Source: an uncultured Thermodesulfobacteriota bacterium (GTDB lineage Bacteria; Desulfobacterota; B13-G15). Taken from it: a DNA stretch of 24,000 nt. The stretch is from NCBI GenBank assembly GCA_964448445.1, contig CAYVAU010000012.1:7925-31924 (forward strand), in the 5' to 3' direction. Positions 2,332 to 22,603 of this stretch are shown piece after piece. Position 1 is the first letter of the stretch, and every line of letters begins with the position of its first letter. The translations under genes were made by a program, and so were the position numbers. The notes below the pieces were generated by a model. It was given only the letters and a program-made list of their open reading frames with translations. It was not told the origin of the DNA and ran no database searches.

Positions 2332-2371
2332 TTCTTCCCCCAGAAGGCCTTAAAGCTATATCAGATTTGCC

Positions 2372-5767: not shown

Positions 5768-5779
5768 GGAAGGGTAAGG

Positions 5780-6115
5780 CTATCCCAATTTCCCCCGGAT
5801 ATCAACTTCCTGCCGCACCCATTCCAGATATCCTCGACTTCCCCCCACCACAGGAATGGCCACAACCTCGGGGGTCTCGTAGGGATGTTGCTCGAGGATT
5901 ACGGCCTCAAGTTGGGGATAGAGCTCTTGGGTGGTCTTGATCAGACACAGCCACTCTTCGGCCTCCTCTTCCTTGCCCTTCCAGTGATAAAAGCTCCTTA
6001 TGGGGCCCAGGATCTGGATGCATGCAGAAAGCCTCTTTTGTAAAAGACTTCGGGCCATCCTGTGGGCATCCTCGGGGTTGTCGAAGGTGGTCAGGACCAA
6101 AAGGATCCCGGTCAA
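5780..6115 (-). CDS. cutA: Divalent-cation tolerance protein CutA
   Basis: 111-aa ORF. The segments ACIQILGPIRSFYHWKGKEEEAEEWLCLIKT and HPYETPEVVAIPV follow the CutA1 pattern. Confidence 0.8.
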   Translation of the reverse strand: MTGILLVLTTFDNPEDAHRMARSLLQKRLSACIQILGPIRSFYHWKGKEEEAEEWLCLIKTTQELYPQLEAVILEQHPYETPEVVAIPVVGGSRGYLEWVRQEVDIRGKLG

Positions 6116-6888: not shown

Positions 6889-6959
6889 CCTTGTCTTTTG
6901 AAACCAATTTTATAAAAATGCACCTCAACAGGCCAACCAGCATAAAGGAGGTTTCCCCA

Positions 6960-8117: not shown

Positions 8118-8333
8118 CCACTCAAGGGGGAGTTCCTCCTTCAATCCCTCCAAGAACGCCACAAACTCCCCTTCAAGCTCGACTGGCACATAGAGTTCCA
8201 TTTCCCCGCGGGAGGCATCCACGGTCCTTGAAGAGGCCAATCCCTCATAGGATTCGAGCAAGAAGTTGAAAAACGCCATTTCCTCCTTCGGTACTTTCAC
8301 CCGATAGATCAAGGTATCCCTTTCATAATCCAT
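8076..8333 (-). CDS. Small DUF4911-like protein (85 aa)
   Basis: The internal ATG at 8333 gives MDYERDTLIYRVKVPKEEMAFFNFLLESYEGLA.... This resembles DUF4911 family members as I recall them. The longer 151-aa reading would run antisense through the GGDEF gene's N-terminus. Confidence 0.5.
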   Translation of the reverse strand: MDYERDTLIYRVKVPKEEMAFFNFLLESYEGLASSRTVDASRGEMELYVPVELEGEFVAFLEGLKEELPLEWSKLDLPESPQGLP

Positions 8334-8347
8334 GGGAAAAATGATAC

Positions 8348-8367
8348 AAAATTTGCGTTCAAATTTT
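8348..8367. promoter_or_regulatory. Perfect 8-bp inverted repeat AAAATTTG-cgtt-CAAATTTT in the AT-rich divergent intergenic region. It is a candidate operator.
   Basis: Read directly: 8348-8355 AAAATTTG and 8360-8367 CAAATTTT. It lies between the DUF4911 start (8333) and the preferred GGDEF-gene start (8383). Confidence 0.25.
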
Positions 8368-8382
8368 AAAAGGAATTTCTCG

Positions 8383-9891: not shown

Positions 9892-10405
9892 CAGGGTGAC
9901 GCTTGTTACTGGAGGGGCAAGGAGCGGAAAGAGCCGCTTTGCACAGGGGCTCGCCGCCGAGTCGGACCTTCCGGTGGTTTACCTGGCCACCGCTTCAGCC
10001 GGAGACCCCGAAATGGCCCGAAGGATCGAGGAACATCGTAGGCTTAGGCCCAGCCATTGGAGGACGGTGGAGGAGGGAAAGGACATCTTGGGAACCATCA
10101 AGGGCCTCACAACTCCCCATACGGTCCTTGTGGATTGCATAACCCTTTGGATCAGCAACCTCCTGGAGGAGGGCCTCGGGGATGAGGAGATCCTCCAAAG
10201 GGCCCGCCACCTTGCCGACTTCCTCCCCTCTTCGGGACACCGTATAATTCTGGTCACCAACGAGGTCGGATGGGGAATCGTCCCCCCCTCCCCCTTGGGG
10301 AGGCGTTTCAGGGATCTTGCCGGAAGGGTAAATCAGATCCTCGCTGAGGCTTCAGATGAGGTCTTCCTCATGGTATCGGGCCTCCCCCTGAGGATAAAGC
10401 CGTGA
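9884..10405 (+). CDS. cobU: Bifunctional adenosylcobinamide kinase / adenosylcobinamide-phosphate guanylyltransferase
   Basis: ATG 9884 overlaps the upstream stop (ATGCGTAG). P-loop VTGGARSGKSRFA and the histidine-containing segment IEEHRRLRP are present. Length is 173 aa. Confidence 0.85.
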   Translation: MRSRVTLVTGGARSGKSRFAQGLAAESDLPVVYLATASAGDPEMARRIEEHRRLRPSHWRTVEEGKDILGTIKGLTTPHTVLVDCITLWISNLLEEGLGDEEILQRARHLADFLPSSGHRIILVTNEVGWGIVPPSPLGRRFRDLAGRVNQILAEASDEVFLMVSGLPLRIKP

Positions 10406-11106
10406 AGGCAGTTTTCGCGGCCTTAAGTTTCATGACCATTTTGCCCGTCCCTCCAGGAGGGGCTTTTCACAAAGCCCCCGCTTTCTTTCCCCTGGTGGGG
10501 GCCATTCTTGGAACGATCCTCTGGGCGATATCCCTCCCCTTGGGTTTGCTCTGGGGGGAGGAATTTTCCGCCTTGGGGATGGTGCTGGGGCTCTCGATCC
10601 TCACCCGGGGGCTTCATCTGGATGGCCTTGCGGATTCAGTGGATGCCCTTTTAGGCCCGAGGGAAAAGGCCCTCGAGATAATGCGCGATCCCCATATCGG
10701 GACCTTTGGAACGCTGGCCATTGTGGGGGTGATCCTGGCGAAGTTCGTCCTACTGCTGAACCTCGGGAGGGACTGGCATGCCCTTTTGCTCTTTCCGACC
10801 CTCGGAAGGATGGCAGCTCTTTTGCCCATGTACAGCCTCCCCTATCTCAGGGGAGAGGGGAAGGTCAGCCCCTTTCTGCCCATGGGAAAGGGGACCCTCG
10901 GGGTGGGCCTTCTGTTTTCGCTTGCCCTGTCGTCTTTGCTCCTTTGGCCGGTAGGTGTTGTGGTTTTCGGTATTGTCCTTTTTTACGGCCTTGCTGTTTC
11001 CCTTTATTTGAAAAGGAGGCTCGGGGGGGTGACCGGTGATCTATTGGGCGCCACGGTTGAGACGGCCGAGGTGGTGTCCCTGATGACCCTGGGGGTATTG
11101 AGGTAG
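10402..11106 (+). CDS. cobS: Adenosylcobinamide-GDP ribazoletransferase (cobalamin synthase)
   Basis: Polytopic membrane protein. The N-terminus MKAVFAALSFMTILPVP and the segment HLDGLADSVDAL are typical of CobS. It has a 4-nt overlap with cobU. Confidence 0.85.
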   Translation: MKAVFAALSFMTILPVPPGGAFHKAPAFFPLVGAILGTILWAISLPLGLLWGEEFSALGMVLGLSILTRGLHLDGLADSVDALLGPREKALEIMRDPHIGTFGTLAIVGVILAKFVLLLNLGRDWHALLLFPTLGRMAALLPMYSLPYLRGEGKVSPFLPMGKGTLGVGLLFSLALSSLLLWPVGVVVFGIVLFYGLAVSLYLKRRLGGVTGDLLGATVETAEVVSLMTLGVLR

Positions 11107-12171
11107 ATGGTTCACGGCGGCAGGGTCTTTGAGGCATCCGAGATCACCGGTTTAGGAATCGAGGAGATCTTGGATTTTTCGGCCAATCTCAATGCCTTCC
11201 TCGATCCCTCACCCCTGTGGGATCTCCTGAAGGAGCACATCCACTGGATATCCTTCTATCCCGATGCGATGAGGGCCATAAGGGCCCTCTCGAGCTTCCT
11301 GCAGGTGCCCGAGGATAACCTCTGGGTAGGCAATGGTTCGGCCGAGTTGATCTTTTCGGTCCTCAGGGCCATCAGGCCCAAGAAGGTGCTCATACCCGTT
11401 CCGACCTTTTCCGAATACGAGAGGGCTGCCCTGGCCTCGGGCTCACAGGTGGAGTTCCTGAAACTCAGGGAAGAGGACGGCTTCAGACCATCCCTTGAGG
11501 ACCTCCTCAGGGCAGGGGAGACCTCCGAGATGTTGATCCTCTGCAACCCCAACAACCCCACGGGGGTCCTCCTCAGCCAGGAGGAACTCCTCGAGCTAAT
11601 TCGGGGGCTTAAGGAAACCTGGATCCTTGTGGATGAGGCCTTTCTGCCTTTCGTCAAACCCCAAAAGAAACCTGACCTCCGCAAGGTGGCACTGCAGCAG
11701 AGGGTGATCCTGCTTAGGTCCCTCACCAAGACCTTCGCCATCCCCGGACTGAGGCTCGGCTACCTTTTGGCTCCAAAGGGGGTGATTAGCAAAATCCGAG
11801 CCACAGCACCTCCCTGGCCCATAAATACCCTTTCCCAGCTGGTGCTCGAGCGCCTGGATGAGCTTTGGCCAATTCTCGAAAAGGGTCTTGGGGAGTTCTT
11901 CGGGGAGAGGGAGAGGTTCTTTGGGAGGCTCAGCAGTTTCCTTCTGGTCTATCCTTCTGAGGCAAATTTCTTCCTGCTCAAGGTCCAGGACCCCCAACTC
12001 CCCTCAAAGCTCATGGTCAAGGGGATCCTGATACGGGGTCCCTCGGGCTTCAGGAACCTCGGTCCAGGATATCTGCGGGTTGCCATAAGGCGTCCTTGGG
12101 AAAACGAAAGGTTGATAGGGGCACTTCAGGAGGTGATCGATGGGCCTGAAGGAGATCCTTTCGCAGATTAA
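11107..12171 (+). CDS. cobD: L-threonine-O-3-phosphate decarboxylase (CobD of Salmonella nomenclature; class I/II aminotransferase fold)
   Basis: The N-terminus MVHGGRVFE ... ILDFSANLNAF is the signature start of this family. NPNNPTG and the PLP-lysine segment RSLTKTFAIPGLRLGY are also present. Confidence 0.8.
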   Translation: MVHGGRVFEASEITGLGIEEILDFSANLNAFLDPSPLWDLLKEHIHWISFYPDAMRAIRALSSFLQVPEDNLWVGNGSAELIFSVLRAIRPKKVLIPVPTFSEYERAALASGSQVEFLKLREEDGFRPSLEDLLRAGETSEMLILCNPNNPTGVLLSQEELLELIRGLKETWILVDEAFLPFVKPQKKPDLRKVALQQRVILLRSLTKTFAIPGLRLGYLLAPKGVISKIRATAPPWPINTLSQLVLERLDELWPILEKGLGEFFGERERFFGRLSSFLLVYPSEANFFLLKVQDPQLPSKLMVKGILIRGPSGFRNLGPGYLRVAIRRPWENERLIGALQEVIDGPEGDPFAD

Positions 12172-13210
12172 GCCCCTTAATAGGGAAGCCATTCAGGAGG
12201 CCAAGAGGCGGACCGAGGATCTGCTCATGCCCCGCCTGGCCCTGGGCAGGCTTCATGAAATCTCCTGGCAGGTGGCCGGGATAACCGGGAAGATCCCCAA
12301 GGCCCTGCCTAAGAAGGTGGTCATGGTGGGTGCGGGAGATCACGGGGTGGCAGAGGAAGGGGTGAGCCTCTTTCCCCAAGAAGTGACTAGGCAGATGGTC
12401 CTTTCCTTTATCAGGGGCTGGGCAGCCATAAACGTGATCGCAAGATATGTAGGGGCAAGGGTCATCGTGGTGGACTTTGGCGTCAAGGGTCCTCCCGACC
12501 CCGAATGGATCAACGCCAGGGGGCGCTTTTATTCCATGAAGGTGAGGGAGGGAACCTCCAACATCGCCAGAGGTCCGGCCATGTCCCTGCGAGAGGCCGA
12601 AGAGGTCGTCCTTAAGGGAATCGAGGTCTTTGAGCGGGAGGCCGAAAAGGGGATCGACATCATAGCCACGGGCGACATGGGCATTGCGAATACCACCGCT
12701 TCAGCAGCAGTAATCTGCGCCATAACGGGCTTGGATCCCCACGAGGTAGTGGGGAGGGGCACAGGGCTCGATGACCGGGCCTTGGAGCACAAGATCTCGG
12801 TGGTTAAGCGGGCCCTGGAGGTCAACAGGCCCAACCCCCGCGATGCCCTCGATGTGCTGAGCAAGGTCGGTGGGCTCGAAATAGGGGGCATATGCGGGTG
12901 GATCATCGGAGGGGCAAGGGCAAGGGTCCCCGTCGTGGTCGATGGCTTCATCTCTACAGCTGGGGCCCTTTTAGCCGTAACCCTTGAGCCGAAGGTGAAG
13001 GATTACCTCTTTGCAGGCCATTGCTCCGCGGAGAAGGGCCACAGGAAGGTCCTTCAGTACCTGGGCCTTGAGCCCATTCTCGATCTGCAGATGAGGCTTG
13101 GCGAAGGAACCGGTGCGTGCCTGGCCCTGGAGATCGTGGAGGCGTCGGTGAAGATTCTGGCCGAAATGGCGACCTTCGAGGATGCTGGGGTGAGCAAGGC
13201 CCTAAAATAG
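12140..13210 (+). CDS. cobT: Nicotinate-nucleotide--dimethylbenzimidazole phosphoribosyltransferase
   Basis: Motifs LGRLHEIS, GDHGVAEEGVS, GDMGIANTTASAA and LRLGEGTGA. It has a 32-nt overlap with the preceding gene. Confidence 0.9.
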   Translation: MGLKEILSQIKPLNREAIQEAKRRTEDLLMPRLALGRLHEISWQVAGITGKIPKALPKKVVMVGAGDHGVAEEGVSLFPQEVTRQMVLSFIRGWAAINVIARYVGARVIVVDFGVKGPPDPEWINARGRFYSMKVREGTSNIARGPAMSLREAEEVVLKGIEVFEREAEKGIDIIATGDMGIANTTASAAVICAITGLDPHEVVGRGTGLDDRALEHKISVVKRALEVNRPNPRDALDVLSKVGGLEIGGICGWIIGGARARVPVVVDGFISTAGALLAVTLEPKVKDYLFAGHCSAEKGHRKVLQYLGLEPILDLQMRLGEGTGACLALEIVEASVKILAEMATFEDAGVSKALK

Positions 13211-14152
13211 CAGTGCCAACAGGGAGGCCAGGGCCAGAAATGAAAAGGATGTTCCATAACTCAACCTTATGGCCCGCAGGATGTCCTGAGGGGAAGGCTT
13301 CTCCCCGTCCCCTATGAAAGGGAGGTCGTGGACCACACCCCGATATTTCGTGGGTCCCCCGAGCCTGACTCCAAGGGCCCCGGCGAAGGCCGCTTCGGGA
13401 TAGCCTGAATTGGGGCTTGGGGTCTTATTGTGATCCCTGAGCACCACTGAAAGGGCCCCTTTAGGATCCATCCCCAAAAGGAGGGCAGAGAGGGGGACCA
13501 GAAATACGCAGAACCTTGCCGGGAGGAGATTGAAGAGGTCATCGGCCTTTGCCGAAAACCACCCAAAGGATCGATAGGGCCCGCACTTATACCCGAGCAT
13601 GGAATCGAGGGTGCTAATGGCTTTAAAGGCCATGGCCAGGGGTGCCCCTCCCAGCATGGCGTAGAACAAGGGCGTCAGAACTCCATCTACGGTGTTTTCG
13701 GCCACCGACTCAACGTCACCTCTGCACACCTCCCTTGGAGGGAGGTCATCGGTATCCCGGGATACAATCCTGGAGAGCCTTTCTCTGGCCTTCGGGAGGT
13801 CCCCTTCCTTTAAAGCGTCATAGACCCCCCTTGCCTCTCGATCCAAATCCCTCAGGGCCAGGGTGGTCCAGAGCAACACCACCTCCACTGCAGCCCCAAA
13901 CCCGGGAGAGATCCCCGCACACCCCCTGATCAATGCCCAGCTCCCGAAAAAGGAGAACCCAACAACTAGGATCCATAAGATGGCCCCTCCCATACGGCTT
14001 GGCATTGCAGGCAAAAGGAGGCTTTCAAGCCCCTTGGTAAGCCACCCCATAATCCTCACGGGATGGGGGAACCACCTCGGGTCGCCCAGGATCAGATCCA
14101 AGCCAAAGGCGAGGACCACAAGATGCCACTTCCCCAAGAACTCAATTCCCAA
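13202..14152 (-). CDS. cbiB: Adenosylcobinamide-phosphate synthase (CbiB/CobD membrane protein)
   Basis: Segments LDLILGDPRWFPHPVRIMG, SRDTDDL and NSGYPEAAFAGALGVRLGG. The ORF-track start at 14152 is TTG, so the exact start is uncertain. It is convergent with cobT, with a 9-nt overlap. Confidence 0.85.
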   Translation of the reverse strand: MGIEFLGKWHLVVLAFGLDLILGDPRWFPHPVRIMGWLTKGLESLLLPAMPSRMGGAILWILVVGFSFFGSWALIRGCAGISPGFGAAVEVVLLWTTLALRDLDREARGVYDALKEGDLPKARERLSRIVSRDTDDLPPREVCRGDVESVAENTVDGVLTPLFYAMLGGAPLAMAFKAISTLDSMLGYKCGPYRSFGWFSAKADDLFNLLPARFCVFLVPLSALLLGMDPKGALSVVLRDHNKTPSPNSGYPEAAFAGALGVRLGGPTKYRGVVHDLPFIGDGEKPSPQDILRAIRLSYGTSFSFLALASLLALLF

Positions 14153-14224: not shown

Positions 14225-14812
14225 ATGAAACTGGGTATAAAGTTAAGTAACAGGATACTGTCCCTTGCCTTGAAGGAGCTGGTGCTTTCGGCTTTGCCTT
14301 TCGGGTGGAAGGCCTATGAAGGTGATGGTGTGCCCGGGGATGTCGATGTGTTGGTTGTGGATTATCCTGTCCTTTCGTCGGGCAGGGTGTCGGCCTTCAG
14401 GGGGGCTAAGGTCTTGGTCCTTGATACAGGTCTCAGCATGGCGGAAAAAAGAGGCTGTTTTCTCCTTCATGGTGTAAAGGGAGTGGTCCAGCGGGATGCC
14501 GCTTTACCCTTGTTCATTAAGGCCTTGGACAGGGTCAATAAGGGTGAACTGTGGATCGATCAGGAGACCCTAAAGGAGGTGGTCAAGGTTTCCAGGAACG
14601 GGCGCATGGTCCCCAAGGGGGTTACACCAAGGGAAAGGGATGTTCTCTTTTTGGTCTGTAAGGGTTACACCAATAAGGAGATCGCTTCGGAACTCGGCAT
14701 CAGCCTTTCGACGGTAAAGAGCATCCTGGGGAATCTCTATCGCAAGTTCAATGTGTCGGGGCGTTCGATGCTTCAGGCCACTGTGACCCGAGGGCAGCTC
14801 CTCACCCTCTAA
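14225..14812 (+). CDS. LuxR/FixJ-family transcription regulator with an atypical (CsgD-like) receiver-like N-terminal domain
   Basis: C-terminal HTH: TPRERDVLFLVCKGYTNKEIASELGISLSTVKSILGNLYRKF. The N-terminal ~120 aa have an alternating beta/alpha pattern with VDVLVVDYPV, but no acidic pair is evident in the first strand. Confidence 0.8.
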   Translation: MKLGIKLSNRILSLALKELVLSALPFGWKAYEGDGVPGDVDVLVVDYPVLSSGRVSAFRGAKVLVLDTGLSMAEKRGCFLLHGVKGVVQRDAALPLFIKALDRVNKGELWIDQETLKEVVKVSRNGRMVPKGVTPRERDVLFLVCKGYTNKEIASELGISLSTVKSILGNLYRKFNVSGRSMLQATVTRGQLLTL

Positions 14813-15330
14813 GGGGCCTTTAAGGTGAGGGATTGGAGGTTCCTGAAGACCCCGAGGGTCAATCCCCCCATTGGATAGAGGTAAAGTTTGAGACCCGACT
14901 TTCCGGTCCCGGAGATCGTCACCCTTTGGGCCGTATCCTCTGTGATTTCGACCTGGACTCTATTGGCCTTAAAGCCCTCTATCCAGCTCCGCTTCTCCCC
15001 CTCAAGATCGTTCTGGACCAGGTAAACGGCCATATGGTAGACGGTGCAGCGGTCATCCCCTACGGAGGTGATAAGCAGGGAGTGCTGCACCTTGTCCGGT
15101 GTTTGGAAATCGACGGCGAGGCTTCCGGTTGCCCTGTCAAAGGTGGCATACCAGGGGACCCCCTTTGGGACCCTCTGATCGAGGACCAAACGGCAGAGGG
15201 GGTTCATCCCGTTAACTATCTCCGGGGAGAAGCCCTTCTCAAGGAGGGATTCCTCGGGGCCACCCCTAGCATTCCCTGAGGTCAAAAGGGAGAGAATCAG
15301 GGCAAAGAGGATGAGCCTCGCCTTTCCCAT
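14809..15330 (-). CDS. Secreted protein of unknown function (173 aa), last gene of the repeat-protein operon
   Basis: ATG at 15330 overlaps the upstream TAA (TAATG coupling). The ORF-track GTG start is at 15342. The signal peptide is MGKARLILFALILSLLTSGNA. I recognise no family. Confidence 0.6.
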   Translation of the reverse strand: MGKARLILFALILSLLTSGNARGGPEESLLEKGFSPEIVNGMNPLCRLVLDQRVPKGVPWYATFDRATGSLAVDFQTPDKVQHSLLITSVGDDRCTVYHMAVYLVQNDLEGEKRSWIEGFKANRVQVEITEDTAQRVTISGTGKSGLKLYLYPMGGLTLGVFRNLQSLTLKAP

Positions 15331-15782
15331 TACAGTCCCCACGGCAGTGACCTTATGATCTCCTCCACGCCCAGCTGCGTGACCTGGATTATGCTGATGT
15401 TGATGATTAGGTCCGTATCGATGATATTGTTGGACCCTGGAACTTGCACAATCTGGAAGACCCCCCTCGCCCCATAAAATCCTCCTACAGAGGCCTCAAT
15501 CCTCACATTGGACGGAAGGGAGGGGGCAGAGGCGGGTTCTCCTTGGGTCTCGTAGAAGGAATTCCCCAGGGTGTCCCAGTATCCCTCAAAGACGACCGAA
15601 AAGCTCATCCCCATGTACGCACCCCTCATTTCGTCCAGCTCCCCCTCGTCGACGGCCTGAGCGACCACCTCTTCTCCCAGAAAGATCGCCTCTTCAAAGA
15701 TTCGGGGGGAGGAGGCGCGAACTGAGCCAGCCACAAGCATCACCGCCAGCAATGCTCCTATGATCAACAGACAGCCTTTCAT
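15330..15782 (-). CDS. Secreted 150-aa protein carrying one degenerate copy of the N/Q/G core repeat
   Basis: ATG at 15782 follows GGAGG (gaggaaggaggtaaaaATG). The signal peptide is MKGCLLIIGALLAVMLVAGSVRA. The segment GVFQIVQVPGSNNIIDT (15414-15464) aligns to GIVNVNQSVGNMNNQAN. The 189-aa ORF-track extension overlaps the C39 gene and was discarded. Confidence 0.65.
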   Translation of the reverse strand: MKGCLLIIGALLAVMLVAGSVRASSPRIFEEAIFLGEEVVAQAVDEGELDEMRGAYMGMSFSVVFEGYWDTLGNSFYETQGEPASAPSLPSNVRIEASVGGFYGARGVFQIVQVPGSNNIIDTDLIINISIIQVTQLGVEEIIRSLPWGL

Positions 15783-15798
15783 TTTTACCTCCTTCCTC

Positions 15799-16482
15799 TC
15801 AAAACTCACCTGGCGGTCTGAAGGAGCCCCAAGCCCCTGTCCAGTCCATAAGCCCCTTCCATTGGGCCTGCATGATCGGGGCCTTTGGGCGCGTTTCAAG
15901 GGGAAGGGGCGTTGTGGGGGCCTTCTTGTAGACGACGAAAATGACCCCGTTCCATCCCTTCAGGAACTCCTCCATCCTGAGACTCCTGTTCCCCACCGCT
16001 GGATCAGCCAGAAAGACCCTGTTGCTATCTGTACCCTTGAGGACGACAAAGTGCTTGTAACCCCGGGTGTTGAGCAATACGATCACGGGGATCTTGATCT
16101 TTGGGAGATCCTTGGCCTTAATTCTGTAACCGTTGGCCACAAATCCCTTGGAGGATGCGTATCGTTTGAGATCGAGAAGGGAGAATCCCTTCTTGCGGAT
16201 CTTTTCGCGATCCCCTATCTCAAGCATCTCCTTTACGATCTCCCGCTCGGATACCTCCTGGCCGTAGTAATACTTGATGATGGTAGCAAGGGAGGCGGCC
16301 CCACAGCTGAAATCGTAACGCTGGGGGACCACCTTCCTGAACCTGGCCTCCCGCAACGAAACTACTTCCTTCCTCAGATACCCGCCGAAGGGACCCCGAA
16401 CCTTGAGGGATGCCGGATATCCTCCAAAGGGAAGAAGTGCAAGGAAGAGGACTACCGCTGATATCCGGACTCCCCACATCAC
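15799..16482 (-). CDS. Stand-alone periplasmic C39-family cysteine peptidase (bacteriocin-processing peptidase fold), FapD-like in context
   Basis: The signal peptide is MMWGVRISAVVLFLALLPFGG. The catalytic Cys lies in YDFSCGAASLATII (codon 16303-16305). His is in YKHFVVL and Asp is in FLADP. The start is GTG 16482 or ATG 16479, and it overlaps the upstream TGA. Confidence 0.85.
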   Translation of the reverse strand: MMWGVRISAVVLFLALLPFGGYPASLKVRGPFGGYLRKEVVSLREARFRKVVPQRYDFSCGAASLATIIKYYYGQEVSEREIVKEMLEIGDREKIRKKGFSLLDLKRYASSKGFVANGYRIKAKDLPKIKIPVIVLLNTRGYKHFVVLKGTDSNRVFLADPAVGNRSLRMEEFLKGWNGVIFVVYKKAPTTPLPLETRPKAPIMQAQWKGLMDWTGAWGSFRPPGEF

Positions 16483-17093
16483 CTGACCTCCTGCCGCAGC
16501 GAAATCCCCAGCCGGTTGCAGATGGAGTTGTTGTTCCCCGAGGACTGACTGAGGATCCCCACCCCAGAAGCCCCGACGAAGGAATCGGCAATGATATCTT
16601 CCCTCATCCCTCCCCCTTCCGCTACCTGCCCTCGGAGCAGGCGGGGGCTCTCCCTCTCGAGCTCCCTTTCGCTGAGGAGGAGCACCCCTCCTATGGAGCA
16701 GAACATGAAGTTTGACTGATCGTTGAGGTTTCCCGATGATTGATTGACCATAAAGATCCCCTGGGATCCCGAAAAGGACCCGATGATGGAATCCCGGCTC
16801 TGGGAGTTCAGGATCGAGGCGGTGGAACGATCGCGTTGTTGCCGAAGGAAGGCCTCGAGTTCCACAGCCCCCCCTGTCAGGGAGAACAGCAGAAGATTTG
16901 CCTGGTTGTTGAGGGATCCGGAGGCCTGATTGAGGGTGTAAAGACCTTGGTTTTCCGTAAAGGAAAATTGAACCAATGTGCTGCTGGAGGTGTCCGAGGA
17001 GAGGATGAAAGAAGAAGTTTCGAGGCCACTGGAGAGGGCATCCGCTGCCACTGCCACCGATATCACCATTATGAGAATCGCCACCTTGAACAC
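16479..17093 (-). CDS. Secreted 204-aa repeat protein, the shorter and more degenerate paralogue of the two upstream repeat proteins
   Basis: GTG start at 17093, 6 nt after AAGGAGG. The signal peptide is MFKVAILIMVISVAVAA. The three cores are GLYTLNQASGSLNNQAN, GIFMVNQSSGNLNDQSN and GVGILSQSSGNNNSICN. Confidence 0.75.
   Translation of the reverse strand: MFKVAILIMVISVAVAADALSSGLETSSFILSSDTSSSTLVQFSFTENQGLYTLNQASGSLNNQANLLLFSLTGGAVELEAFLRQQRDRSTASILNSQSRDSIIGSFSGSQGIFMVNQSSGNLNDQSNFMFCSIGGVLLLSERELERESPRLLRGQVAEGGGMREDIIADSFVGASGVGILSQSSGNNNSICNRLGISLRQEVR
16515..16946 (-). repeat. Three spaced copies of the 17-codon N/Q/G core inside the 204-aa gene
   Basis: The cores lie at 16896-16946, 16710-16760 and 16515-16565. 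I verified the second by back-translation. Core starts are 62 and 65 codons apart. Confidence 0.8.
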
Positions 17094-17109
17094 CCTTTGC
17101 CTCCTTAGG

Positions 17110-17143
17110 AAAGGGCGGACAGGAGGGATCCTGTCCGCCCTTT
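17110..17143 (-). terminator. Intra-operon GC-rich hairpin between the 276-aa and 204-aa genes, acting as a partial terminator or an mRNA-stabilising 3' structure
   Basis: AAAGGGCGGACAGG (17110-17123) pairs perfectly with CCTGTCCGCCCTTT (17130-17143) around a 6-nt loop. On the minus strand it is followed only by TTTCC and then the SD of the next gene, so the U-tract is weak. Confidence 0.5.
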
Positions 17144-17152
17144 GTGGTTAAC

Positions 17153-17983
17153 TTACCTGGCCCCCATTTCTATGACACTGGGGACGCTCGCCGAGATGCT
17201 GATGATATTGGACTGGTTGTTCATGTTGCCTGAGGACTGGTTGACGTTGACGACGCCGACATTCCCGTTGATAGAGTTGGCGATCGAGTCAAGCCTGACG
17301 GTGCCCCACTCGTAGACCGTATTGCCGGTGCTGCTCTGCCCGAGATCCGCCTCAGATAGCGCCACCAGGGCCTCGCTGGCAACGGCCAGAACTATCTGAT
17401 TTGCCTGGTTGTTCATGTTGCCAACTGACTGATTTACGTTCACAATACCCATGTTATCCAGGATGGAGCCCGAGATCAGGGATTTCTTCTGTGGACCAGC
17501 AGTGTAGTCTTCCACAGCGTCCACGGAATTTCCTCCGTTTACCTGCTGCATCGATGCTTGGGAGTTGGCAAAACCGAGTACCCCTTCACCCTCGGACCAA
17601 GAGATGGCCGCGCTGATGAGGTTTGCCTGGTTGATGGAGTTGCCCACTTCCTGGTTTAGGTTGACGATGCCGGTGTTGGTGTTGACCGAGTCGCTGAGCG
17701 TGGCGGTCCTGTAGATCATGTCATACTGAGGTTTAAATTCATTAGAATACCTCGATACCGTATTTTCGGTTGCGGACTGATTGAGGAGGCTGCTGGCCTC
17801 AGCTCCTTGGTTGCCTTCAACGGCTATATCGACCTTGACCCTGACCCCTTTGTTGATCCTGACCTTCTCGTTGACCGTGACGCTCTTTGTCTTTTCCACC
17901 GTCCCGGTGACATCCAAATCGGCGAGGGCATAGCCCACCGCCCCGAGGAGAAATATTGCTGTAAGTGCCAAAATCTTTTTCAT
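17153..17983 (-). CDS. Secreted 276-aa Asn/Gln/Gly-rich three-repeat protein. It is the candidate major fibre/amyloid subunit (FapC/CsgA analogue).
   Basis: ATG at 17983 lies 8 nt after GGAGG. The signal peptide is MKKILALTAIFLLGAVGYALA. The three cores are GIVNLNQEVGNSINQAN, GIVNVNQSVGNMNNQAN and GVVNVNQSSGNMNNQSN. It contains no Cys. Confidence 0.85.
   Translation of the reverse strand: MKKILALTAIFLLGAVGYALADLDVTGTVEKTKSVTVNEKVRINKGVRVKVDIAVEGNQGAEASSLLNQSATENTVSRYSNEFKPQYDMIYRTATLSDSVNTNTGIVNLNQEVGNSINQANLISAAISWSEGEGVLGFANSQASMQQVNGGNSVDAVEDYTAGPQKKSLISGSILDNMGIVNVNQSVGNMNNQANQIVLAVASEALVALSEADLGQSSTGNTVYEWGTVRLDSIANSINGNVGVVNVNQSSGNMNNQSNIISISASVPSVIEMGAR
17207..17671 (-). repeat. Three spaced copies of the 17-codon core G-[IV]-V-N-[VL]-N-Q-x-x-G-N-x-x-N-Q-x-N in the 276-aa gene
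   Basis: The cores lie at 17621-17671, 17399-17449 and 17207-17257. I verified the first by back-translation. Each is preceded by a [ST]-x-[SG]-x-S-[IV]-x-x-N-x segment. Confidence 0.85.
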
Positions 17984-18006
17984 CTTTTACACCTCCTTTT
18001 AGGTTT

Positions 18007-18819
18007 TTACATGCCGTAAACCGAGCCAGAGATGTTGACGGCGTTGAGCTGGTTGCCCAACACCCCCGCGCTCTGGTTTACCTCGACCACACCCACATTC
18101 TCGTTTATGGATCCGGAGATGGTGGCGGTCTTGGTGGTGTCATATTCCATGAAGCTGTTTCCGGCTACGGCCTGACCGAGATCGGCCTCAGCAAGGGCCA
18201 CAAGGCCGCTGAAGCTGACACCCAAGGTCAACCCATTGCCCTGATTGGAGATGTTTCCGACCGACTGATTGACCATCACAATCCCTGTGTTCGTGTTGAT
18301 GGAACCCGTAATTACGGCATCCCTGTAAAGGATCTGGATGCTATCTATGGTGTTTCCCTCCATCAGCTGGCCCACCGATGTCTGGGCATGGGCAAAGCCA
18401 TAGCCCTCAGCGGGGGGCTCGCCATTGCCATTCGGGGTCCCGCCATTTATGGGTCCATCAACGGCCGCAGAGAGCATGTTCGACTGATTGGCCATGTTCC
18501 CCGTGGCCTGGTTCAGATTGACGATCCCTGCATTATTCAGTATCGAACCAACAACCTCACTCGTCTTTTCAGCACAGTTCTCGCAGGCGAAGTTTCCCCT
18601 CTGGCTCTGATTAAGGACCGCATGGGCCTCGGCAGCCTTCTCTCCTACCACATCCAGGGTCACATCGACAGAAAGGTTCTTCTTTATATTGATGACTTCC
18701 TCGACATTGACCGTCTTCTCCTTTGTCACCGTGCCACTGGCCTCCACATCTGCCAGAGCGGAAATCGCCCCGACAAATAGGAAACACGACGCAATTGCCA
18801 CTACTTTCAATCCATTCAT
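18007..18819 (-). CDS. Secreted 270-aa three-repeat protein, full-length paralogue of the 276-aa protein. It is a candidate second subunit or nucleator (FapB/CsgB analogue).
   Basis: ATG at 18819 lies 5 nt after GGAGG. The signal peptide is MNGLKVVAIASCFLFVGAISALA. The cores are GIVNLNQATGNMANQSN, GIVMVNQSVGNISNQGN and GVVEVNQSAGVLGNQLN. The shared blocks LVAL[SA]EADLGQ and GTV.K.K.V.V show the two proteins are collinear. Confidence 0.85.
   Translation of the reverse strand: MNGLKVVAIASCFLFVGAISALADVEASGTVTKEKTVNVEEVINIKKNLSVDVTLDVVGEKAAEAHAVLNQSQRGNFACENCAEKTSEVVGSILNNAGIVNLNQATGNMANQSNMLSAAVDGPINGGTPNGNGEPPAEGYGFAHAQTSVGQLMEGNTIDSIQILYRDAVITGSINTNTGIVMVNQSVGNISNQGNGLTLGVSFSGLVALAEADLGQAVAGNSFMEYDTTKTATISGSINENVGVVEVNQSAGVLGNQLNAVNISGSVYGM
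18043..18528 (-). repeat. Three spaced copies of the 17-codon core in the 270-aa gene
   Basis: The cores lie at 18478-18528, 18235-18285 and 18043-18093. I verified the first by back-translation. Confidence 0.85.
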
Positions 18820-18908
18820 CCTAACCTCCTTTCAAAAGGTTTTTGATTAAATCGCCGAATCCCATAATTCATCCAAAGGCCTTTACATCACCTCCTTTCT
18901 TTTTGTTT

Positions 18909-19205
18909 TTACCACCCCACTATCTTCAAAACATTTACCTGAACGTTGCCGCATCCAGAAGATATGTTGTCAATTTCCATGCTCCTTTTGATCTCATCCC
19001 ACAGAACGATTTTACTGCTCTCTGACATAATGAGGGTGATATTGCCTTCGCCTTGTCCCCATATCTGTGACAATTCATCAGAAGTGAGCGGATAATTGAC
19101 AACTTCAAAAGGAATCCCTCCATCAGAAAGAGCCTTCGATGTACCACAAAATAGACACAAACAAAAGCATACAATAACACAAACAATCCAGTACCTGTGA
19201 TGCAT
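18909..19205 (-). CDS. Putative small secreted protein (98 aa), first ORF of the operon
   Basis: ATG at 19205 lies 14 nt downstream of the sigma54 -12 element and has no SD. The hydrophobic N-terminus MHHRYWIVCVIVCFCLCLFCGTSKA is unusually Cys-rich. The ORF is AT-rich relative to its neighbours, so coding status is uncertain. Confidence 0.4.
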   Translation of the reverse strand: MHHRYWIVCVIVCFCLCLFCGTSKALSDGGIPFEVVNYPLTSDELSQIWGQGEGNITLIMSESSKIVLWDEIKRSMEIDNISSGCGNVQVNVLKIVGW

Positions 19206-19219
19206 GGTTTAAAATGATC

Positions 19220-19234
19220 GCAATTAGCATGCCA
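19220..19234 (-). promoter_or_regulatory. Sigma54 (RpoN) -24/-12 promoter for the repeat-protein operon
   Basis: The minus strand reads TGGCATGCTAATTGC, against the consensus TGGCAC-N5-TTGC. The GG and GC dinucleotides have exact spacing. The site is in an intergenic AT-rich region, and a sigma54 activator gene lies about 1.1 kb away. Confidence 0.65.
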
Positions 19235-19288
19235 TTGGGAAATTTTGCTGTGTTTTCATGAGGAGTGAAGGAACGGAAGAACAGAAAT

Positions 19289-19305
19289 TGTAAAGGATTT
19301 TTACA
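19289..19305. promoter_or_regulatory. Candidate enhancer (UAS) site 1: palindrome TGTAAAGGATTTTTACA (TGTAAA-N5-TTTACA)
   Basis: Read directly. Its centre is roughly 88 bp upstream of the predicted sigma54 transcription start. It is the inverted copy of site 2. Confidence 0.5.
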
Positions 19306-19358
19306 CCCTGAACTTGACAATGTGCTTTGAATCTGCAAATTTCACGAAAGGTAAAAGA

Positions 19359-19375
19359 CGTAAAAATCCTTTACA
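19359..19375. promoter_or_regulatory. Candidate enhancer (UAS) site 2: CGTAAAAATCCTTTACA, reverse complement of site 1 at 16 of 17 positions
   Basis: Read directly. Its centre is roughly 158 bp upstream of the predicted sigma54 start. It abuts the SD (GGAGG, 19376-19380) of the divergent OM-barrel gene. Confidence 0.5.
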
Positions 19376-19386
19376 GGAGGTAAGAA

Positions 19387-20361
19387 ATGGTAAAGTTTAG
19401 GTTGGGAGTGATAGTTTTTGTGGTCTTGGTCTTTTCGGTGTTTGGCGGTCCTTTAATGGCCCAGGAGTCCGGGGAGAAGAAGCCGGCTGAGGCCCTTTTG
19501 GCCGAGCAAGGGGGGGTGCTTTTGCCCAAGGGCGCGTTGGTCCTTGAGCCCTCCATAAAGTACAGCCATTTTTCGAGGCATCGCATTGCCATCTCCGGTT
19601 TTTCGATCCTTGAGGCGATAGTCATAGGGCGGATAGAGGTGAGGGATGTGAAGAGGGATATCCTTCAGTTTTCCCTGACGGGCCGTTATGGCCTTACCAA
19701 TCGTTTGGAACTTGAGGCCGAGGTCCCTTATTTGTTCGTGCACTATCGGGATCTGAGGAGGGCCGAGGGTGATGGTGGGCCCTACAAGGTTAGCGACAAC
19801 GACATCGGGGATGTGGAAGGGGGCATCTATTATCACCTGATAAGGGAGAAGGGGTGGGTGCCCGATATAGTGGTGAACTTGAGGGTGAAGGCCCCTACTG
19901 GGAAGGACCCCTATGAGGTCGAACGCGAGGGCAATAGATTAAAGGAACTTCCCACCGGCAACGGCCACTGGGGCCTATCGGGGGGCTTTACCATGGTTAA
20001 GGCGAGTGACCCCGCAGTTTTCTTTGCGGGCCTTAACTACCAGTGGAACATAGAGCGCGATGTGGGCAAGGGTTATGGGAAGATCGATCCCGGCGACAGC
20101 ATCGAGTACAACCTCGGCATGGCCTATGCCCTAAGTGAGCGATTTTCCCTCTCCACGTCCTTTCAGCAGCGCATAACCTTTGAGACCGAACAAAACGGCC
20201 ACAAGGACCCGGAGACTTATATGAACGTGGCTTCTGTGAATTTTGGCCTGAATTACTCCCTCTCTAAAACGGCGGGTTTGAACATCAATGTGGGGATCGG
20301 GCTGACCGAAGATTCCCCGGATTTCGAGGTGACCCTCAGCGTGCCCCTCAGGGTGTTTTAG
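19387..20361 (+). CDS. Outer-membrane beta-barrel protein (transporter-like). It is the candidate export channel for the repeat proteins (FapF/CsgG analogue by context).
   Basis: ATG lies 6 nt after GGAGG. The signal peptide is MVKFRLGVIVFVVLVFSVFGGPLMA. Amphipathic strands alternate throughout, and the C-terminus is LSVPLRVF with a terminal Phe. The family call is from pattern only. Confidence 0.75.
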   Translation: MVKFRLGVIVFVVLVFSVFGGPLMAQESGEKKPAEALLAEQGGVLLPKGALVLEPSIKYSHFSRHRIAISGFSILEAIVIGRIEVRDVKRDILQFSLTGRYGLTNRLELEAEVPYLFVHYRDLRRAEGDGGPYKVSDNDIGDVEGGIYYHLIREKGWVPDIVVNLRVKAPTGKDPYEVEREGNRLKELPTGNGHWGLSGGFTMVKASDPAVFFAGLNYQWNIERDVGKGYGKIDPGDSIEYNLGMAYALSERFSLSTSFQQRITFETEQNGHKDPETYMNVASVNFGLNYSLSKTAGLNINVGIGLTEDSPDFEVTLSVPLRVF

Positions 20362-21815
20362 TCCTTACTCTGGATCCTGTAGCGCCTCATGAGGTTGTAA
20401 ACGGTGGGGCGGCTCACACCGAGGATTTTTGCCGTGCGGGTGATGTTGTAGTTGGAGGCCTTAAGGGCCTGAAGGAGGCTCTCCTTCTCGATCCTCTGCC
20501 TGATTTCCTTTATGCCGGAAGGCCTCTTCGGGGCCTCAGGGGCCTGGATGGACAGGTCCTCAGGTCGGATCACCTCCGATTCGGAGATGAGCAGGGCCTT
20601 GCGGATCTTGTTTATCATCTCCCTGACATTGCCCGGCCAGTGGTACTGCATTATGGCCTCAAGGGCCTCCTTGCTGAAGCGCTTCTTCGGACCGGGTTGA
20701 TCCTCCTGGAGCTTCTTCAAAAAGTAAGTGGCCAAAATGACCTTGTCCTTTCCCCTCTCCCTCAGAGGGGGGAGTTCAACGGTTACAACGCTCAAACGGT
20801 AATAGAGGTCCTCCCTGAAGCGGCCCTCCTCGACCTCTTCCTCCAGGTTCCTATTGGTTGCGGCGATGATCCTCGTATCGACTCTCCTGGTGGTCCTTGA
20901 TCCTATCCGCTCGATACTGCCATCCTCGAGAAACCTCAGCAATTTCGCCTGCAGGGCAAGGGGCAGTTCCCCGATCTCGTCCAGAAACAGCGTGCCACCG
21001 TGGGCCTGTTCCACTTTGCCCTTCCTTGCGGTGTAAGCCCCGGTGAAGGCCCCCCGTTCGTAGCCGAAAAGCTCGGCCTCTAGGAGGTTTTCCGGGATTG
21101 CGGCGCAGTTTATGACCACGAAGGGCTTGTCGCGCCTTGGGCTCCTTTCGTGGATGGCCCTTGCCGTCAATTCCTTCCCCGTACCGGTTTCGCCCAGGAT
21201 GAGCACGGGAACATCAGTAGGGGCCACTTTCCTTATCAGGGAGAAGACCTTGAGCATGGCCTCGCAGGTCCCCACGAACTCCTCGTCCTCCTTCTCGCCT
21301 TTGTGTTCAAGGGCCCTGTCCACATAGGGGAGCAGTTGCAGGCAGAAATCGCCGTTTAGGTCCTTGAAGCGCCTCTTTAAACGCTCCCAAAGGGTGTCCT
21401 GGATGTGCCTTTGGAGATAATCCTGCTGGTTGAAGCAGAGCAGAAGCTTACAGTTGGGACACCGCAGGAGCAGGACCGTTGGCAGGGAGGTATTGCAGTA
21501 GGGGCAGGATTCAAACCCCTTCTCGGGCAACCCATCCCTTATCATGGACCAGAGGCCTACCAGTTCGTTCACATCGCGAAAGACGAAGGACACCGCCCCC
21601 TCTCCCCCCTCCCTCCTCAGGAACCTGACCCTTAGCGATAGCCTCCTTCCCCTCTCGTCGGAGAAGTGGAGAAGGCCGAACTCCCCCGGGGGGAGGTTCC
21701 CCTTGAGCAGGGCCCCTCCGAGGCTTACGTTGCACACCGTCACCGCAAAGAAACCGTTTTCCCCCTCAAGCTGGCCAGGCCAAGAACCCCTGATCCTAAC
21801 GTCCAATCTCGCCAT
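20358..21815 (-). CDS. Sigma54-dependent transcriptional activator with an N-terminal PilZ domain and a Zn-ribbon (PilZ, CxxC-CxxC, AAA+, Fis-type HTH)
   Basis: PilZ motifs: RLDVR (21795-21809) and NVSLGG (21714-21731). Zn-ribbon: CPYCNTSLPTVLLLRCPNC. Walker A: GETGTGKE. Sigma54-contact loop: ERGAFTGA. C-terminal HTH: NITRTAKILGVSRPTVYNLMRR. Confidence 0.9.
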   Translation of the reverse strand: MARLDVRIRGSWPGQLEGENGFFAVTVCNVSLGGALLKGNLPPGEFGLLHFSDERGRRLSLRVRFLRREGGEGAVSFVFRDVNELVGLWSMIRDGLPEKGFESCPYCNTSLPTVLLLRCPNCKLLLCFNQQDYLQRHIQDTLWERLKRRFKDLNGDFCLQLLPYVDRALEHKGEKEDEEFVGTCEAMLKVFSLIRKVAPTDVPVLILGETGTGKELTARAIHERSPRRDKPFVVINCAAIPENLLEAELFGYERGAFTGAYTARKGKVEQAHGGTLFLDEIGELPLALQAKLLRFLEDGSIERIGSRTTRRVDTRIIAATNRNLEEEVEEGRFREDLYYRLSVVTVELPPLRERGKDKVILATYFLKKLQEDQPGPKKRFSKEALEAIMQYHWPGNVREMINKIRKALLISESEVIRPEDLSIQAPEAPKRPSGIKEIRQRIEKESLLQALKASNYNITRTAKILGVSRPTVYNLMRRYRIQSKD

Positions 21816-21934
21816 TGAACCCGATGCTAATCGAGAAGCGCGGAGGGTTCAATTGGCTAAAGGTCCCATGGCGATCGTCCCTTGGTATGAAGGTTGAAAG
21901 CAGGCAGTTCAGCCCTGTATACTTTTTCGGGGTC

Positions 21935-22603
21935 ATGAGGATCCTGCTGGTGGAAGACGAGAGGAAGCTTTCGAGGATCATCAAACAAGGATTGGAGGAA
22001 GAGGGCTATGGGGTGGAGGAGGCCTCCGATGGCGAGGAGGCCCTTTTCCTCCTCAAGGATCGCACCTATGACCTGGTGATTCTCGATTTGATGCTTCCGA
22101 AGGTGGATGGCCTGGAGGTTTTGAAGGAGTTCCGCCGCGAGAAGGGGGGCAGTACCCCCGTTTTGGTCCTCACCGCCAGGGATACTGTGGAAGATGTGGT
22201 GAGGGGTCTTGATGCTGGTGCGGACGATTACCTGACCAAGCCCTTCGCCTTTGAAGAACTGCTGGCCCGGATAAGGGCCCTCTTGAGGAGAAGGAAGGAG
22301 GAGCTGGAGCTGAGGGTGGAGGACTTGGTGCTGGATCTTAGGACCCGCAAGGCTTGGAGGGGGGAGAAGGAGGTGGAACTCACGGCGAAGGAATTCGCGG
22401 TCCTTGAGTACCTCATGAGGAGGAGTGGGGAGATCGTCACCCGTGAGGAGATAGGTTCTTATGTCTGGGGCAAGGATTACGATCCCAGCACGAACATCGT
22501 GGACGTCTACATCAACCACCTCAGGAAGAAGATCGACCAAGGGTTTCCCCGAAAGCTTATCCACACCATAAGGGGAATGGGCTACAGCCTGAGGCCCTCG
22601 TGA
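21935..22603 (+). CDS. OmpR/PhoB-family response regulator (CusR/CopR-like)
   Basis: I chose the internal ATG 21935 (MRILLVEDERKLSRII). The receiver Asp is in LVILDLMLP, followed by TARD and KPF. The C-terminal winged helix contains ELTAKEFAVLEYLM. Confidence 0.9.
   Translation: MRILLVEDERKLSRIIKQGLEEEGYGVEEASDGEEALFLLKDRTYDLVILDLMLPKVDGLEVLKEFRREKGGSTPVLVLTARDTVEDVVRGLDAGADDYLTKPFAFEELLARIRALLRRRKEELELRVEDLVLDLRTRKAWRGEKEVELTAKEFAVLEYLMRRSGEIVTREEIGSYVWGKDYDPSTNIVDVYINHLRKKIDQGFPRKLIHTIRGMGYSLRPS

Follow-up and report, generated by a model that had tools for sequence, protein, structure and literature searches.

Fap is one of the two model systems for bacterial functional amyloid. In Pseudomonas (fapABCDEF; Dueholm 2010/2013; Rouse 2017), it combines three-repeat FapC and FapB proteins, whose core is of the VNQxxGNxxNQxN type, with FapD, a C39 peptidase of the periplasm, a minor protein of the FapE type whose gene follows that of FapD, and FapF, a barrel of the 12-strand type bearing a PTG motif; all of them are exported by Sec. 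In P. fluorescens PF07, an RpoN promoter of the -24/-12 type precedes fapA-E, whose required sigma54 activator is the product of brfA, a neighbouring gene in reverse orientation (PMC9207406). Fap was described in 2013 as restricted to Beta-, Gamma-, and Deltaproteobacteria (Desulfohalobium), with loss of fapA and separation of fapF as common variants (Dueholm et al., 2013; PMC3792158). In a 2018 review, 25 more genera followed, along with five additional phyla in which fapD and fapF are colocalised (PMC6173800), and a GTDB-wide survey in 2025 lists Desulfobacterota, Nitrospirota, and Bacillota among the phyla with Fap operons, of which over 90% have canonical synteny (PMC12822426). Here, we describe a locus from the metagenomic genome of an uncultured, sulfate-reducer-type Thermodesulfobacteriota bacterium, contained in a stretch of 24,000 nucleotides (hereafter the window; GCA_964448445.1, contig CAYVAU010000012.1, positions 7,925 to 31,924), which very probably encodes a divergent Fap functional-amyloid biogenesis system. 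The host envelope is diderm, since BamA is encoded elsewhere in the window.

All the Pseudomonas features listed above have counterparts in the window, including the sigma54 promoter and the adjacent divergent activator, the counterpart of FapE being weakly supported; the locus is a variant of the known Fap machine, remote from that of Pseudomonas, and not a new kind of fibre system. The differences concern arrangement and individual parts. Instead of the canonical single operon fap(A)BCDEF, the window has the order 98aa-C-C-B-D-E-173aa with fapF divergent: there are two FapC paralogues, the FapB-like gene follows them (C-C-B-D-E), and no FapA is detectable. The FapF-like protein has no coiled coil, the FapE-like protein is approximately 100 residues shorter and carries a near-canonical double-glycine leader, two additional secreted proteins (98 and 173 amino acids) and a LuxR gene are present, and the activator bears a PilZ domain and a zinc ribbon. 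Most of the interest lies in the leader of FapE and in a FapF devoid of the coiled coil. The locus belongs to the non-canonical minority of Fap operons. The original prediction, made from the nucleotide sequence, had placed a Fap- or curli-like amyloid locus here, possibly outside the groups in which Fap had been described; this last point does not hold, because the 2013 study had already found Fap in Deltaproteobacteria (PMC3792158), as did the 2025 survey in Desulfobacterota and Nitrospirota (PMC12822426), so that the locus lies inside known taxonomic territory, and Pfam already contains a FapBC family. It had also counted the position of fapF and the regulators as departures from Fap, whereas fapF separation is a published variant (PMC3792158) and the combination of a sigma54 promoter with an adjacent activator is not new, given the RpoN promoter and divergent brfA of P. 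fluorescens (PMC9207406). Its alignment of the gene order with fapA-B-C-D-E was likewise wrong, as the FapB-like gene comes after two FapC-like genes and the 98-aa protein has no detectable similarity to FapA. Because of this order, labelling FapB and FapC by position would mislabel the whole clade during annotation.

The ten open reading frames (ORFs) of the original prediction were all confirmed (Table 1). Family assignments were made with NCBIfam and with a local copy of Pfam that lacks the FapBC model, and structural comparisons with the PDB, AlphaFold2 (AF2), and Foldseek; this profile search, proposed beforehand as a check, returned matches to the FapB, FapC, FapD, and FapF families. Signal peptides were judged by a hydrophobicity and cleavage-site heuristic. 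As predicted, all seven operon products, and also the barrel, have N-termini resembling signal peptides (basic residue, hydrophobic core, small-residue cleavage site), the maximum Kyte-Doolittle value over 10 residues being 2.8-3.6 in these eight proteins and about 1.8 in the two regulators.

The evidence for Fap subunits comes from three operon products of 270, 276, and 204 aa, each with exactly three repeats built on the core G-[IVL]-x-x-[VL]-[NS]-Q-x-x-G-x-x-x-[ND]-Q-x-N (for example, GIVNVNQSVGNMNNQAN); the FapC core given in the original prediction was roughly correct. The 270- and 276-aa proteins are paralogues (41.5% identity, E 4e-51), to which the 204-aa protein is 30-33% identical. 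In a public gene catalogue, the three are annotated with Pfam PF27129 (FapBC); the local Pfam copy, without that model, gave nothing convincing for them. In NCBIfam, the best match was FapC for both the 276-aa (E 3.4e-19) and the 270-aa protein (E 1e-10), whereas the 204-aa protein matched FapB (E 1.5e-11, model positions 16-188 of 190) better than FapC (4e-7), and is the putative nucleator. A profile built from the 276-aa protein's homologues, 28 in number, aligned with the cryo-electron microscopy FapC chains 9U4U/9NQD at E 6e-6, with the three repeats in register. The AF2 model of this protein is all-beta after a disordered N-terminal region (predicted local distance difference test, pLDDT, 69), and its sole significant Foldseek match was FapC 9U4U (E 6e-5). 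One might suppose that a FapD/FapF-type apparatus exports monomeric or surface-attached beta-solenoid adhesins instead of a self-polymerising amyloid, the homology to FapC reflecting only a shared repeat fold: the AF2 monomer is predicted to fold on its own as a beta-rich solenoid, the clade is known from sequence alone, and pairs of FapD-like and FapF-like proteins without FapBC cargo occur in Cupriavidus, Vibrio, and Photobacterium, as well as in five other phyla (PMC6173800). This is nevertheless improbable, considering that the three-repeat architecture and the N/Q ladder core are in register with the chains of FapC fibrils, and that conservation extends to a short FapB-like paralogue and a FapE-like protein beside the subunits, as nucleated polymerisation would lead one to expect.

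Other features of the repeat proteins were also recorded. The N-terminal segment ADVxVxATIxKTKDITVxE...K of the FapC-like proteins (residues 22-60 of the 276-aa protein) is strongly conserved in the clade, with invariant lysines; this segment, disordered in the AF2 prediction (pLDDT < 50), may act as a signal for secretion or for chaperone binding. A CENCAE (CxxC) motif lies just before repeat 1 of the 270-aa protein (residues ~78-85, FACENCAE) and is common to this paralogue and some homologues from Deltaproteobacteria and Nitrospirae metagenome-assembled genomes (MAGs), the 276-aa type being without it. The only match of the repeat proteins in the local Pfam, to CBM_4_9 in the N-terminal region (20.9 bits, threshold 25.9), was taken as spurious.

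The stand-alone C39 protein (Pfam Peptidase_C39, E 5e-27) had FapD as its best NCBIfam match (E 1.6e-57, 194 bits, cut-off 330). It has a signal peptide and is predicted to be periplasmic, its start overlaps the stop codon of the upstream gene, and its residues Cys60, His144, and Asp160 are kept in at least 95% of 34 homologues. The gene that follows it encodes the 150-aa protein, with a signal peptide, a double-glycine-type leader, and one degenerate Fap-like repeat. The family of this protein comprises 30 homologues, each encoded directly after a C39 gene and, in colinear loci, between fapD and fapF. As the FapE reference, the Aeromonas locus was used, since the FapD/FapF pairs without cargo provided no FapA or FapE reference. 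The family profile aligned with Aeromonas FapE (hhalign probability 84%, E 7e-6), both having in common the motifs LxDxELxxxRG and GxxGxxQxxQxxGxxN. NCBIfam FapE was matched by 16 of the 28 family sequences scanned, one of them being the Aeromonas FapE control and the others being individually weak (best non-Aeromonas match E 1.7e-4, colinear with the model). On these similarities, the 150-aa protein can be regarded with moderate confidence as FapE-like.

In 28 of the 30 FapE-like proteins, the signal peptide is directly followed, at an identical position of the alignment, by the motif [LVIM]xxx[ED][LM]xxxRG[GA] and then by F or Y. The classical leader processed by C39 peptidases has the double-glycine consensus LSxxELxxIxGG, with respect to which the FapE-like leader, LSxxELxxIRGG before F/Y, is near-canonical. 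The cut site of FapD is thus predicted by a remote clade whose FapE relatives keep such a leader, and in the window FapD-like cleavage would take place after VDEGELDEMRGA, in front of Y. In Aeromonas FapE, LADGELAHLRGR followed by Y occupies the equivalent position. In Pseudomonas, secretion depends on the FapD catalytic Cys, and mass spectrometry showed FapE to be without its N-terminus (PMC5557850), data with which a reading of FapE as FapD substrate fits; in a 2025 review, FapD is ‘thought to’ process FapE (PMC12822426). The resemblance to the processing of class II bacteriocins by ABC transporters extends to the Cys/His C39 peptidase itself, but here the peptidase is free in the periplasm, the leader stands behind a Sec signal, and the cargo is fibre-associated and not a toxin. 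A bacteriocin-like processing and export locus, with the 98- and 150-aa proteins as its true substrates and the repeat proteins as unrelated passengers, could explain the LSxxELxxI-type motifs of both small proteins and the weak match of one FapE-like homologue to a class IIb bacteriocin leader model (E 0.02). It is very unlikely, however, because the C39 domain stands alone in the periplasm, unaccompanied by an ABC transporter, the leaders come after Sec signal peptides, and the small proteins are always embedded in FapBC clusters.

The divergent barrel gave its best NCBIfam match to FapF (E 6.5e-57, 193 bits), restricted to positions 99-417 of the 420 of the model, and aligned over residues 40-320 with the FapF crystal structure 5O65 (E 1.3e-43), including the PTG motif (LPTGNG); in the local Pfam it was assigned to Phenol_MetA_deg (COG4313 group). 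Only about 20 mature residues precede the aligned barrel region, with no N-terminal coiled-coil-like segment, whereas the FapF homologues of Alphaproteobacteria, Desulfarculaceae, and Aeromonas have 100-300 residues before the barrel, including coiled-coil-like segments. Such a protein represents a minimal FapF for structural work. Both export proteins also resemble those of Fil, the putative pilus system of Acinetobacter with the C39 peptidase FilB and the barrel FilC: these were the second NCBIfam matches (FilB E 3e-37, FilC E 3e-21), and the barrel matched A. baumannii loci at 29% identity. The scores nevertheless favour the Fap models (194 against 128 bits for the peptidase, 193 against 76 bits for the barrel), the Fil matches stay far from their cut-offs (128 against 475 for FilB, 76 against 630 for FilC), and the cargo is FapBC and not Fil subunits, so that there is very little chance of this being a Fil system. 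The cargo-less FapD-like and FapF-like pairs of Cupriavidus, Vibrio, and Photobacterium were found through barrel matches in a plasmid collection; the two Photobacterium loci (L048, L049) have a sigma54-type activator nearby, which the Vibrio and Cupriavidus loci do not.

Several observations weigh against assigning the locus to Fap. The FapF coiled coil, essential for FapC secretion in Pseudomonas (PMC5557850), is missing from the window protein. No FapA homologue was detected in the locus, where no direct comparison with a FapA sequence or model was made. The FapE assignment is weak for the 150-aa protein of the window itself, which had no direct family match and retrieved only the query in a word-indexed homologue search; the NCBIfam FapE matches of its family have E values from 1.7e-4 to 0.1. 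The motif of the window protein ends in GA, and that of Aeromonas in GR, so a strict GG rule fails. The template modelling (TM) score of the Foldseek match to FapC 9U4U was low (0.13-0.22). Finally, all NCBIfam matches of the Fap proteins of the window fell under the equivalog cut-offs. The Aeromonas control proteins also failed (FapB 78 against 190, FapC 173 against 195, FapE 47 against 250), indicating that these cut-offs mark close orthologues and not the wider family. Aeromonas fapBCDEF is an accepted Fap variant without fapA, which has in common with the window homologues of FapB, C, D, E, and F and an adjacent sigma54-type activator, but differs in its canonical B-C order, a FapF with a coiled coil, and an activator with a VpsR-type N-terminal domain (A. 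caviae, L046 676-1977).

The organisation of the intergenic region between the operon and fapF points to sigma54-dependent transcription. A -24/-12 promoter (TGGCATgctaaTTGC), the single match in the 24-kb window against 0.05 expected, ends 14 nucleotides (nt) before the first ATG. The -12 GC lies 11-15 nt upstream of the ATG of the first gene in four lineages (window/L003, L004/L005, L051/L052, and L033; promoter to first gene at 19205-19234 in the window, ~2080-2120 in L004, ~5040-5075 in L052, and 9478-9507 in L033), and none of the four has a Shine-Dalgarno site at this 98-aa first gene; in L004/L005 and L052, the start of its maximal ORF falls inside the promoter. With so short a distance and no Shine-Dalgarno site, the first cistron would be leaderless or nearly so. 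Farther upstream are two palindromic putative activator sites, the first with the sequence TGTAAAAATCCTTTACA; the pattern TGTAAAN5TTTAC was found within the window in this intergenic region only (0.00 expected), and TGTAAA...TTTACA elements are also present upstream in L003, L004, L005, and L052.

The activator encoded next to fapF consists of a PilZ domain (residues 1-95, 21531-21815), a Cys4 zinc ribbon (residues 104-127, 21435-21506), an AAA+ domain with GAFTGA, and a Fis-type helix-turn-helix (Pfam Sigma54_activat E 2e-74, HTH_8 E 8e-10, PilZ E 6e-4). Sigma54 dependence is consistent with the -24 GG/-12 GC promoter, the GAFTGA activator, and the upstream sites; rpoN lies outside the window. 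PilZ scored 20.5 bits in the window protein, under the Pfam gathering threshold of 22.5, and 28.8-32.9 bits in orthologues, those beside a divergent fapF having PilZ above threshold plus the zinc ribbon. Both PilZ motifs for cyclic di-GMP (c-di-GMP) are present, RLDVR (residues 3-7) and NVSLGG (residues 29-34), in agreement with RxxxR and (D/N)xSxxG, and c-di-GMP is a probable input of the activator. Fap-type amyloid, sigma54 control, and a probable c-di-GMP input, as put forward in the original prediction, are thus all upheld by the FapB, C, D, and F and FapBC matches, the PDB alignments to FapF and FapC, the promoter, the palindromes, and the PilZ motifs. No characterised PilZ-sigma54 activator was found in a literature search. 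Sigma54 activators stand beside fap in seven loci of Desulfobacterota or "Nitrospirae" type, in three of Nitrospira, where receiver domains replace PilZ, and in Aeromonas; the same arrangement therefore recurs in several phyla with swapped sensor modules (PilZ, receiver, VpsR-type).

A second regulator, of the LuxR/FixJ family, is encoded at the end of the operon, with a GerE helix-turn-helix (E 3e-15) and an atypical receiver-like N-terminus. The original prediction had described it as CsgD-like and the locus as partly curli-like. Its best NCBIfam matches were response regulators (MadR, 2e-13), CsgD reaching E 3e-11 and 43 bits against a cut-off of 250, and, outside the closest relatives (L005, L051, L052), the gene is not kept in this place. 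This weak match and the N/Q/G-rich repeats are what a curli-type system, with CsgA/B subunits under a CsgD-like regulator, would have in its favour. Such a system is extremely unlikely and, as far as sequence families go, already refuted: the Curlin repeat, CsgE, CsgF, and CsgG were not matched by any of the ten proteins in Pfam or NCBIfam, and the export parts are those of FapD/FapF.

The operon had been described as tightly coupled. This applies to junctions such as a 4-nt overlap, and the Shine-Dalgarno site is strong at most genes, but gaps reach 89 nt and a strong G+C-rich hairpin of 15 bp separates the 276- and 204-aa genes. The hairpin (free energy -29.7 kcal/mol, z -4.6) was not equalled by any of 200 shuffled sequences. 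Equally strong hairpins of unrelated sequence, some of them followed by U tracts, occupy the same position in the loci of 9 out of 10 relatives (L003 4036-4100, L004, L005 2494-2569, L052 7124-7192, L007 10845-10930, L012 7137-7240, L009 1677-1758, L033 10779-10840, and L017 11676-11738), only a weak fold being found in L022. A scan for consensus terminators did not pick up the window hairpin, whose U tract is short. The element is likely to be an intra-operon attenuator or messenger RNA (mRNA) stabiliser that keeps subunit mRNA in excess.

A survey of one genome per GTDB species yielded 42 cluster loci in Thermodesulfobacteriota, Nitrospirota, and Alphaproteobacteria. Closest to the window are a Guaymas Basin ‘Deltaproteobacteria bacterium’ MAG (88% identity) and an ‘uncultured Thermodesulfobacteriota’ MAG (68%), and the distant ones (31-44%) are Nitrospira, Desulfarculaceae, and many Alphaproteobacteria (Hypericibacter, Rhodospirillaceae, Hyphomonadaceae, Caulobacterales, Erythrobacter). 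The core [FapC-like x2-4]-[FapB-like]-FapD-FapE-like is constant in all loci. In Alphaproteobacteria, Nitrospira, and Desulfarculaceae, this core is continued on the same strand by fapF, which in the window clade and several other Desulfobacterota and ‘Nitrospirae’ MAGs is divergent and adjoins a sigma54 activator. The clusters of Nitrospira, Alphaproteobacteria, and Desulfarculaceae MAGs, covered collectively by the 2025 survey (PMC12822426), have in common with the window the FapBC subfamily (36-50% identity), the C...C-B-D-E order, the FapE-like family with an RGG leader, and the hairpin after the last fapC. They differ from it in the colinear, last position of fapF, which in Alphaproteobacteria and Desulfarculaceae usually keeps the coiled-coil-like N-terminus, in the receiver domains of the Nitrospira activators, and in the absence of the 98-aa, 173-aa, and LuxR genes. 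Conservation of the cluster in relatives, which the original prediction had named beforehand as a test, was most complete in L051/L052 (JGI metagenome contigs). These keep the whole 13-gene block, which includes histidine kinase and response regulator, activator, fapF, 98aa-C-C-B-D-E-173aa, and LuxR, with a 173-aa protein 57% identical over the aligned part, whereas the flank beyond LuxR differs; the cluster is thus conserved as a unit.

Taken as a divergent Fap system, the locus would work as follows. The PilZ/zinc-ribbon activator, with a probable response to c-di-GMP, would bind the two TGTAAA-N5-TTTACA palindromes and fire the -24/-12 promoter, so that the transcript would begin a few nucleotides from the first ATG, and the hairpin 3' of the second fapC-like gene would hold subunit mRNA above that of the downstream accessory genes. 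Sec would export all operon products and the barrel. In the periplasm, the FapD-like peptidase would cleave the FapE-like leader after RGA (RGG in relatives), and the FapE-like protein, the FapB-like nucleator, and the two FapC-like subunits would leave through the FapF-like barrel without a coiled coil. Outside the cell, the three-repeat subunits would stack, seeded by FapB, to form a beta-solenoid amyloid fibre of the biofilm matrix. A more speculative proposal, which we regard as possible but doubtful, is that this remote clade has kept features that are blurred in Pseudomonas, that FapE, with its canonical leader directly behind the Sec signal, is the long-sought FapD substrate with a defined scissile bond, that the 98-aa protein of the window's sub-clade, with its look-alike motif (see below), may bind FapD without being cut and so serve as a decoy or as a FapA-like regulator, and that FapF is gated without a coiled coil through the FapD/FapE step or the 173-aa protein. 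A natural variant lacking the coiled coil and having a textbook C39 leader on FapE offers in any case a concrete, testable FapD cleavage site.

Table 1. Features of the Fap locus and its surroundings in the window (nucleotide positions, or residues where stated).
Feature	Position	Strand	Remarks
98-aa ORF	18909-19205	-	First operon gene
270-aa ORF, FapC-like subunit 1	18007-18819	-	
276-aa ORF, FapC-like subunit 2	17153-17983	-	
204-aa ORF, FapB-like subunit	16479-17093	-	
C39 peptidase ORF, FapD-like	15799-16482	-	226-227 aa
150-aa ORF, FapE-like	15330-15782	-	MKGCLL start at 15782; maximal ORF 189 aa
173-aa ORF	14809-15330	-	Last operon gene; MGKARL start at 15330; maximal ORF 177 aa
FapF-like barrel ORF	19387-20361	+	324 aa; divergent from operon
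LuxR/FixJ-family regulator ORF	14225-14812	+	195 aa; convergent with operon; 4-nt overlap with 173-aa gene
Sigma54 activator ORF	20358-21815	-	485 aa
OmpR-type response regulator ORF	21815-22603	+	Likely start 21935; Response_reg, Trans_reg_C
HAMP histidine kinase	22600 to window end (24000)	+	Divergent from activator
Predicted FapD recognition/cleavage motif in FapE-like protein	15618-15653	-	VDEGELDEMRGA, then Y; residues 44-55
Sigma54 (-24/-12) promoter	19220-19234	-	TGGCATgctaaTTGC; ends 14 nt before first ATG
Palindrome, upstream activating sequence 1	19289-19305	.	TGTAAAAATCCTTTACA; ~65 nt upstream of -24 element; putative activator site
Palindrome, upstream activating sequence 2	19360-19375	.	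Second copy, ~135 nt upstream; abuts fapF ribosome-binding site
G+C-rich RNA hairpin, 15 bp	17110-17143	-	Between last fapC-like and fapB-like gene
Repeats of 270-aa protein	Residues 86-122, 167-203, 231-267		
Repeats of 276-aa protein	Residues 93-129, 167-203, 231-267		
Repeats of 204-aa protein	Residues 38-74, 100-136, 165-201		

The 98- and 173-aa products are lineage-specific proteins predicted to be secreted. Seven loci keep the 98-aa ORF, whose product has a signal peptide, the motifs LSxxELxxxRGxG and ILWDE, and NxQxNxLxIxGW at its C-terminus, and no family match in Pfam or NCBIfam. Its motif LTSDELSQIWGQG (residues 40-52) resembles the FapE-like leader and ends in G-x-G without GG; the protein may act as an uncleavable ligand of the C39 peptidase. 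The family is narrow, with 3 clusters among 1.84 billion representatives, and an exhaustive search returned 2 real relatives; three large repeat proteins (MBG, Sushi, FG-GAP) also retrieved were rejected as compositional false positives. The ORF is called in one relative and was left uncalled in two public assemblies of the locus. In the ENA contig k141_96817 (L001 1695-3003), the fapF and 98-aa ORFs are broken in comparison with the window and L002, probably by assembly frameshifts. The 173-aa protein, with a signal peptide, has 4 homologues in 5.8 billion proteins, all in the same type of cluster, and matches no Pfam or NCBIfam family; its confident AF2 model (pLDDT 84) is alpha+beta, with no significant fold match in the PDB.

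Beyond the activator, the response regulator and histidine kinase genes also flank it in L051/L052 (L051 229-2294), and this pair may belong to the regulation of the Fap block. A PAS-GGDEF-HD(HD_5) protein, probably a c-di-GMP turnover enzyme, is encoded about 5 kb from the locus (8332-9891), which indicates that the organism uses c-di-GMP, with no evidence of a specific link to Fap. The remaining flank (85-14152), unrelated to the Fap block and not kept in L051/L052, carries housekeeping functions, namely BamA, a LolCDE-like ABC transporter, a class II aminoacyl-tRNA synthetase, and genes for cobalamin (CobU, CobS, a CobC-like aminotransferase, CobT, and CobD).

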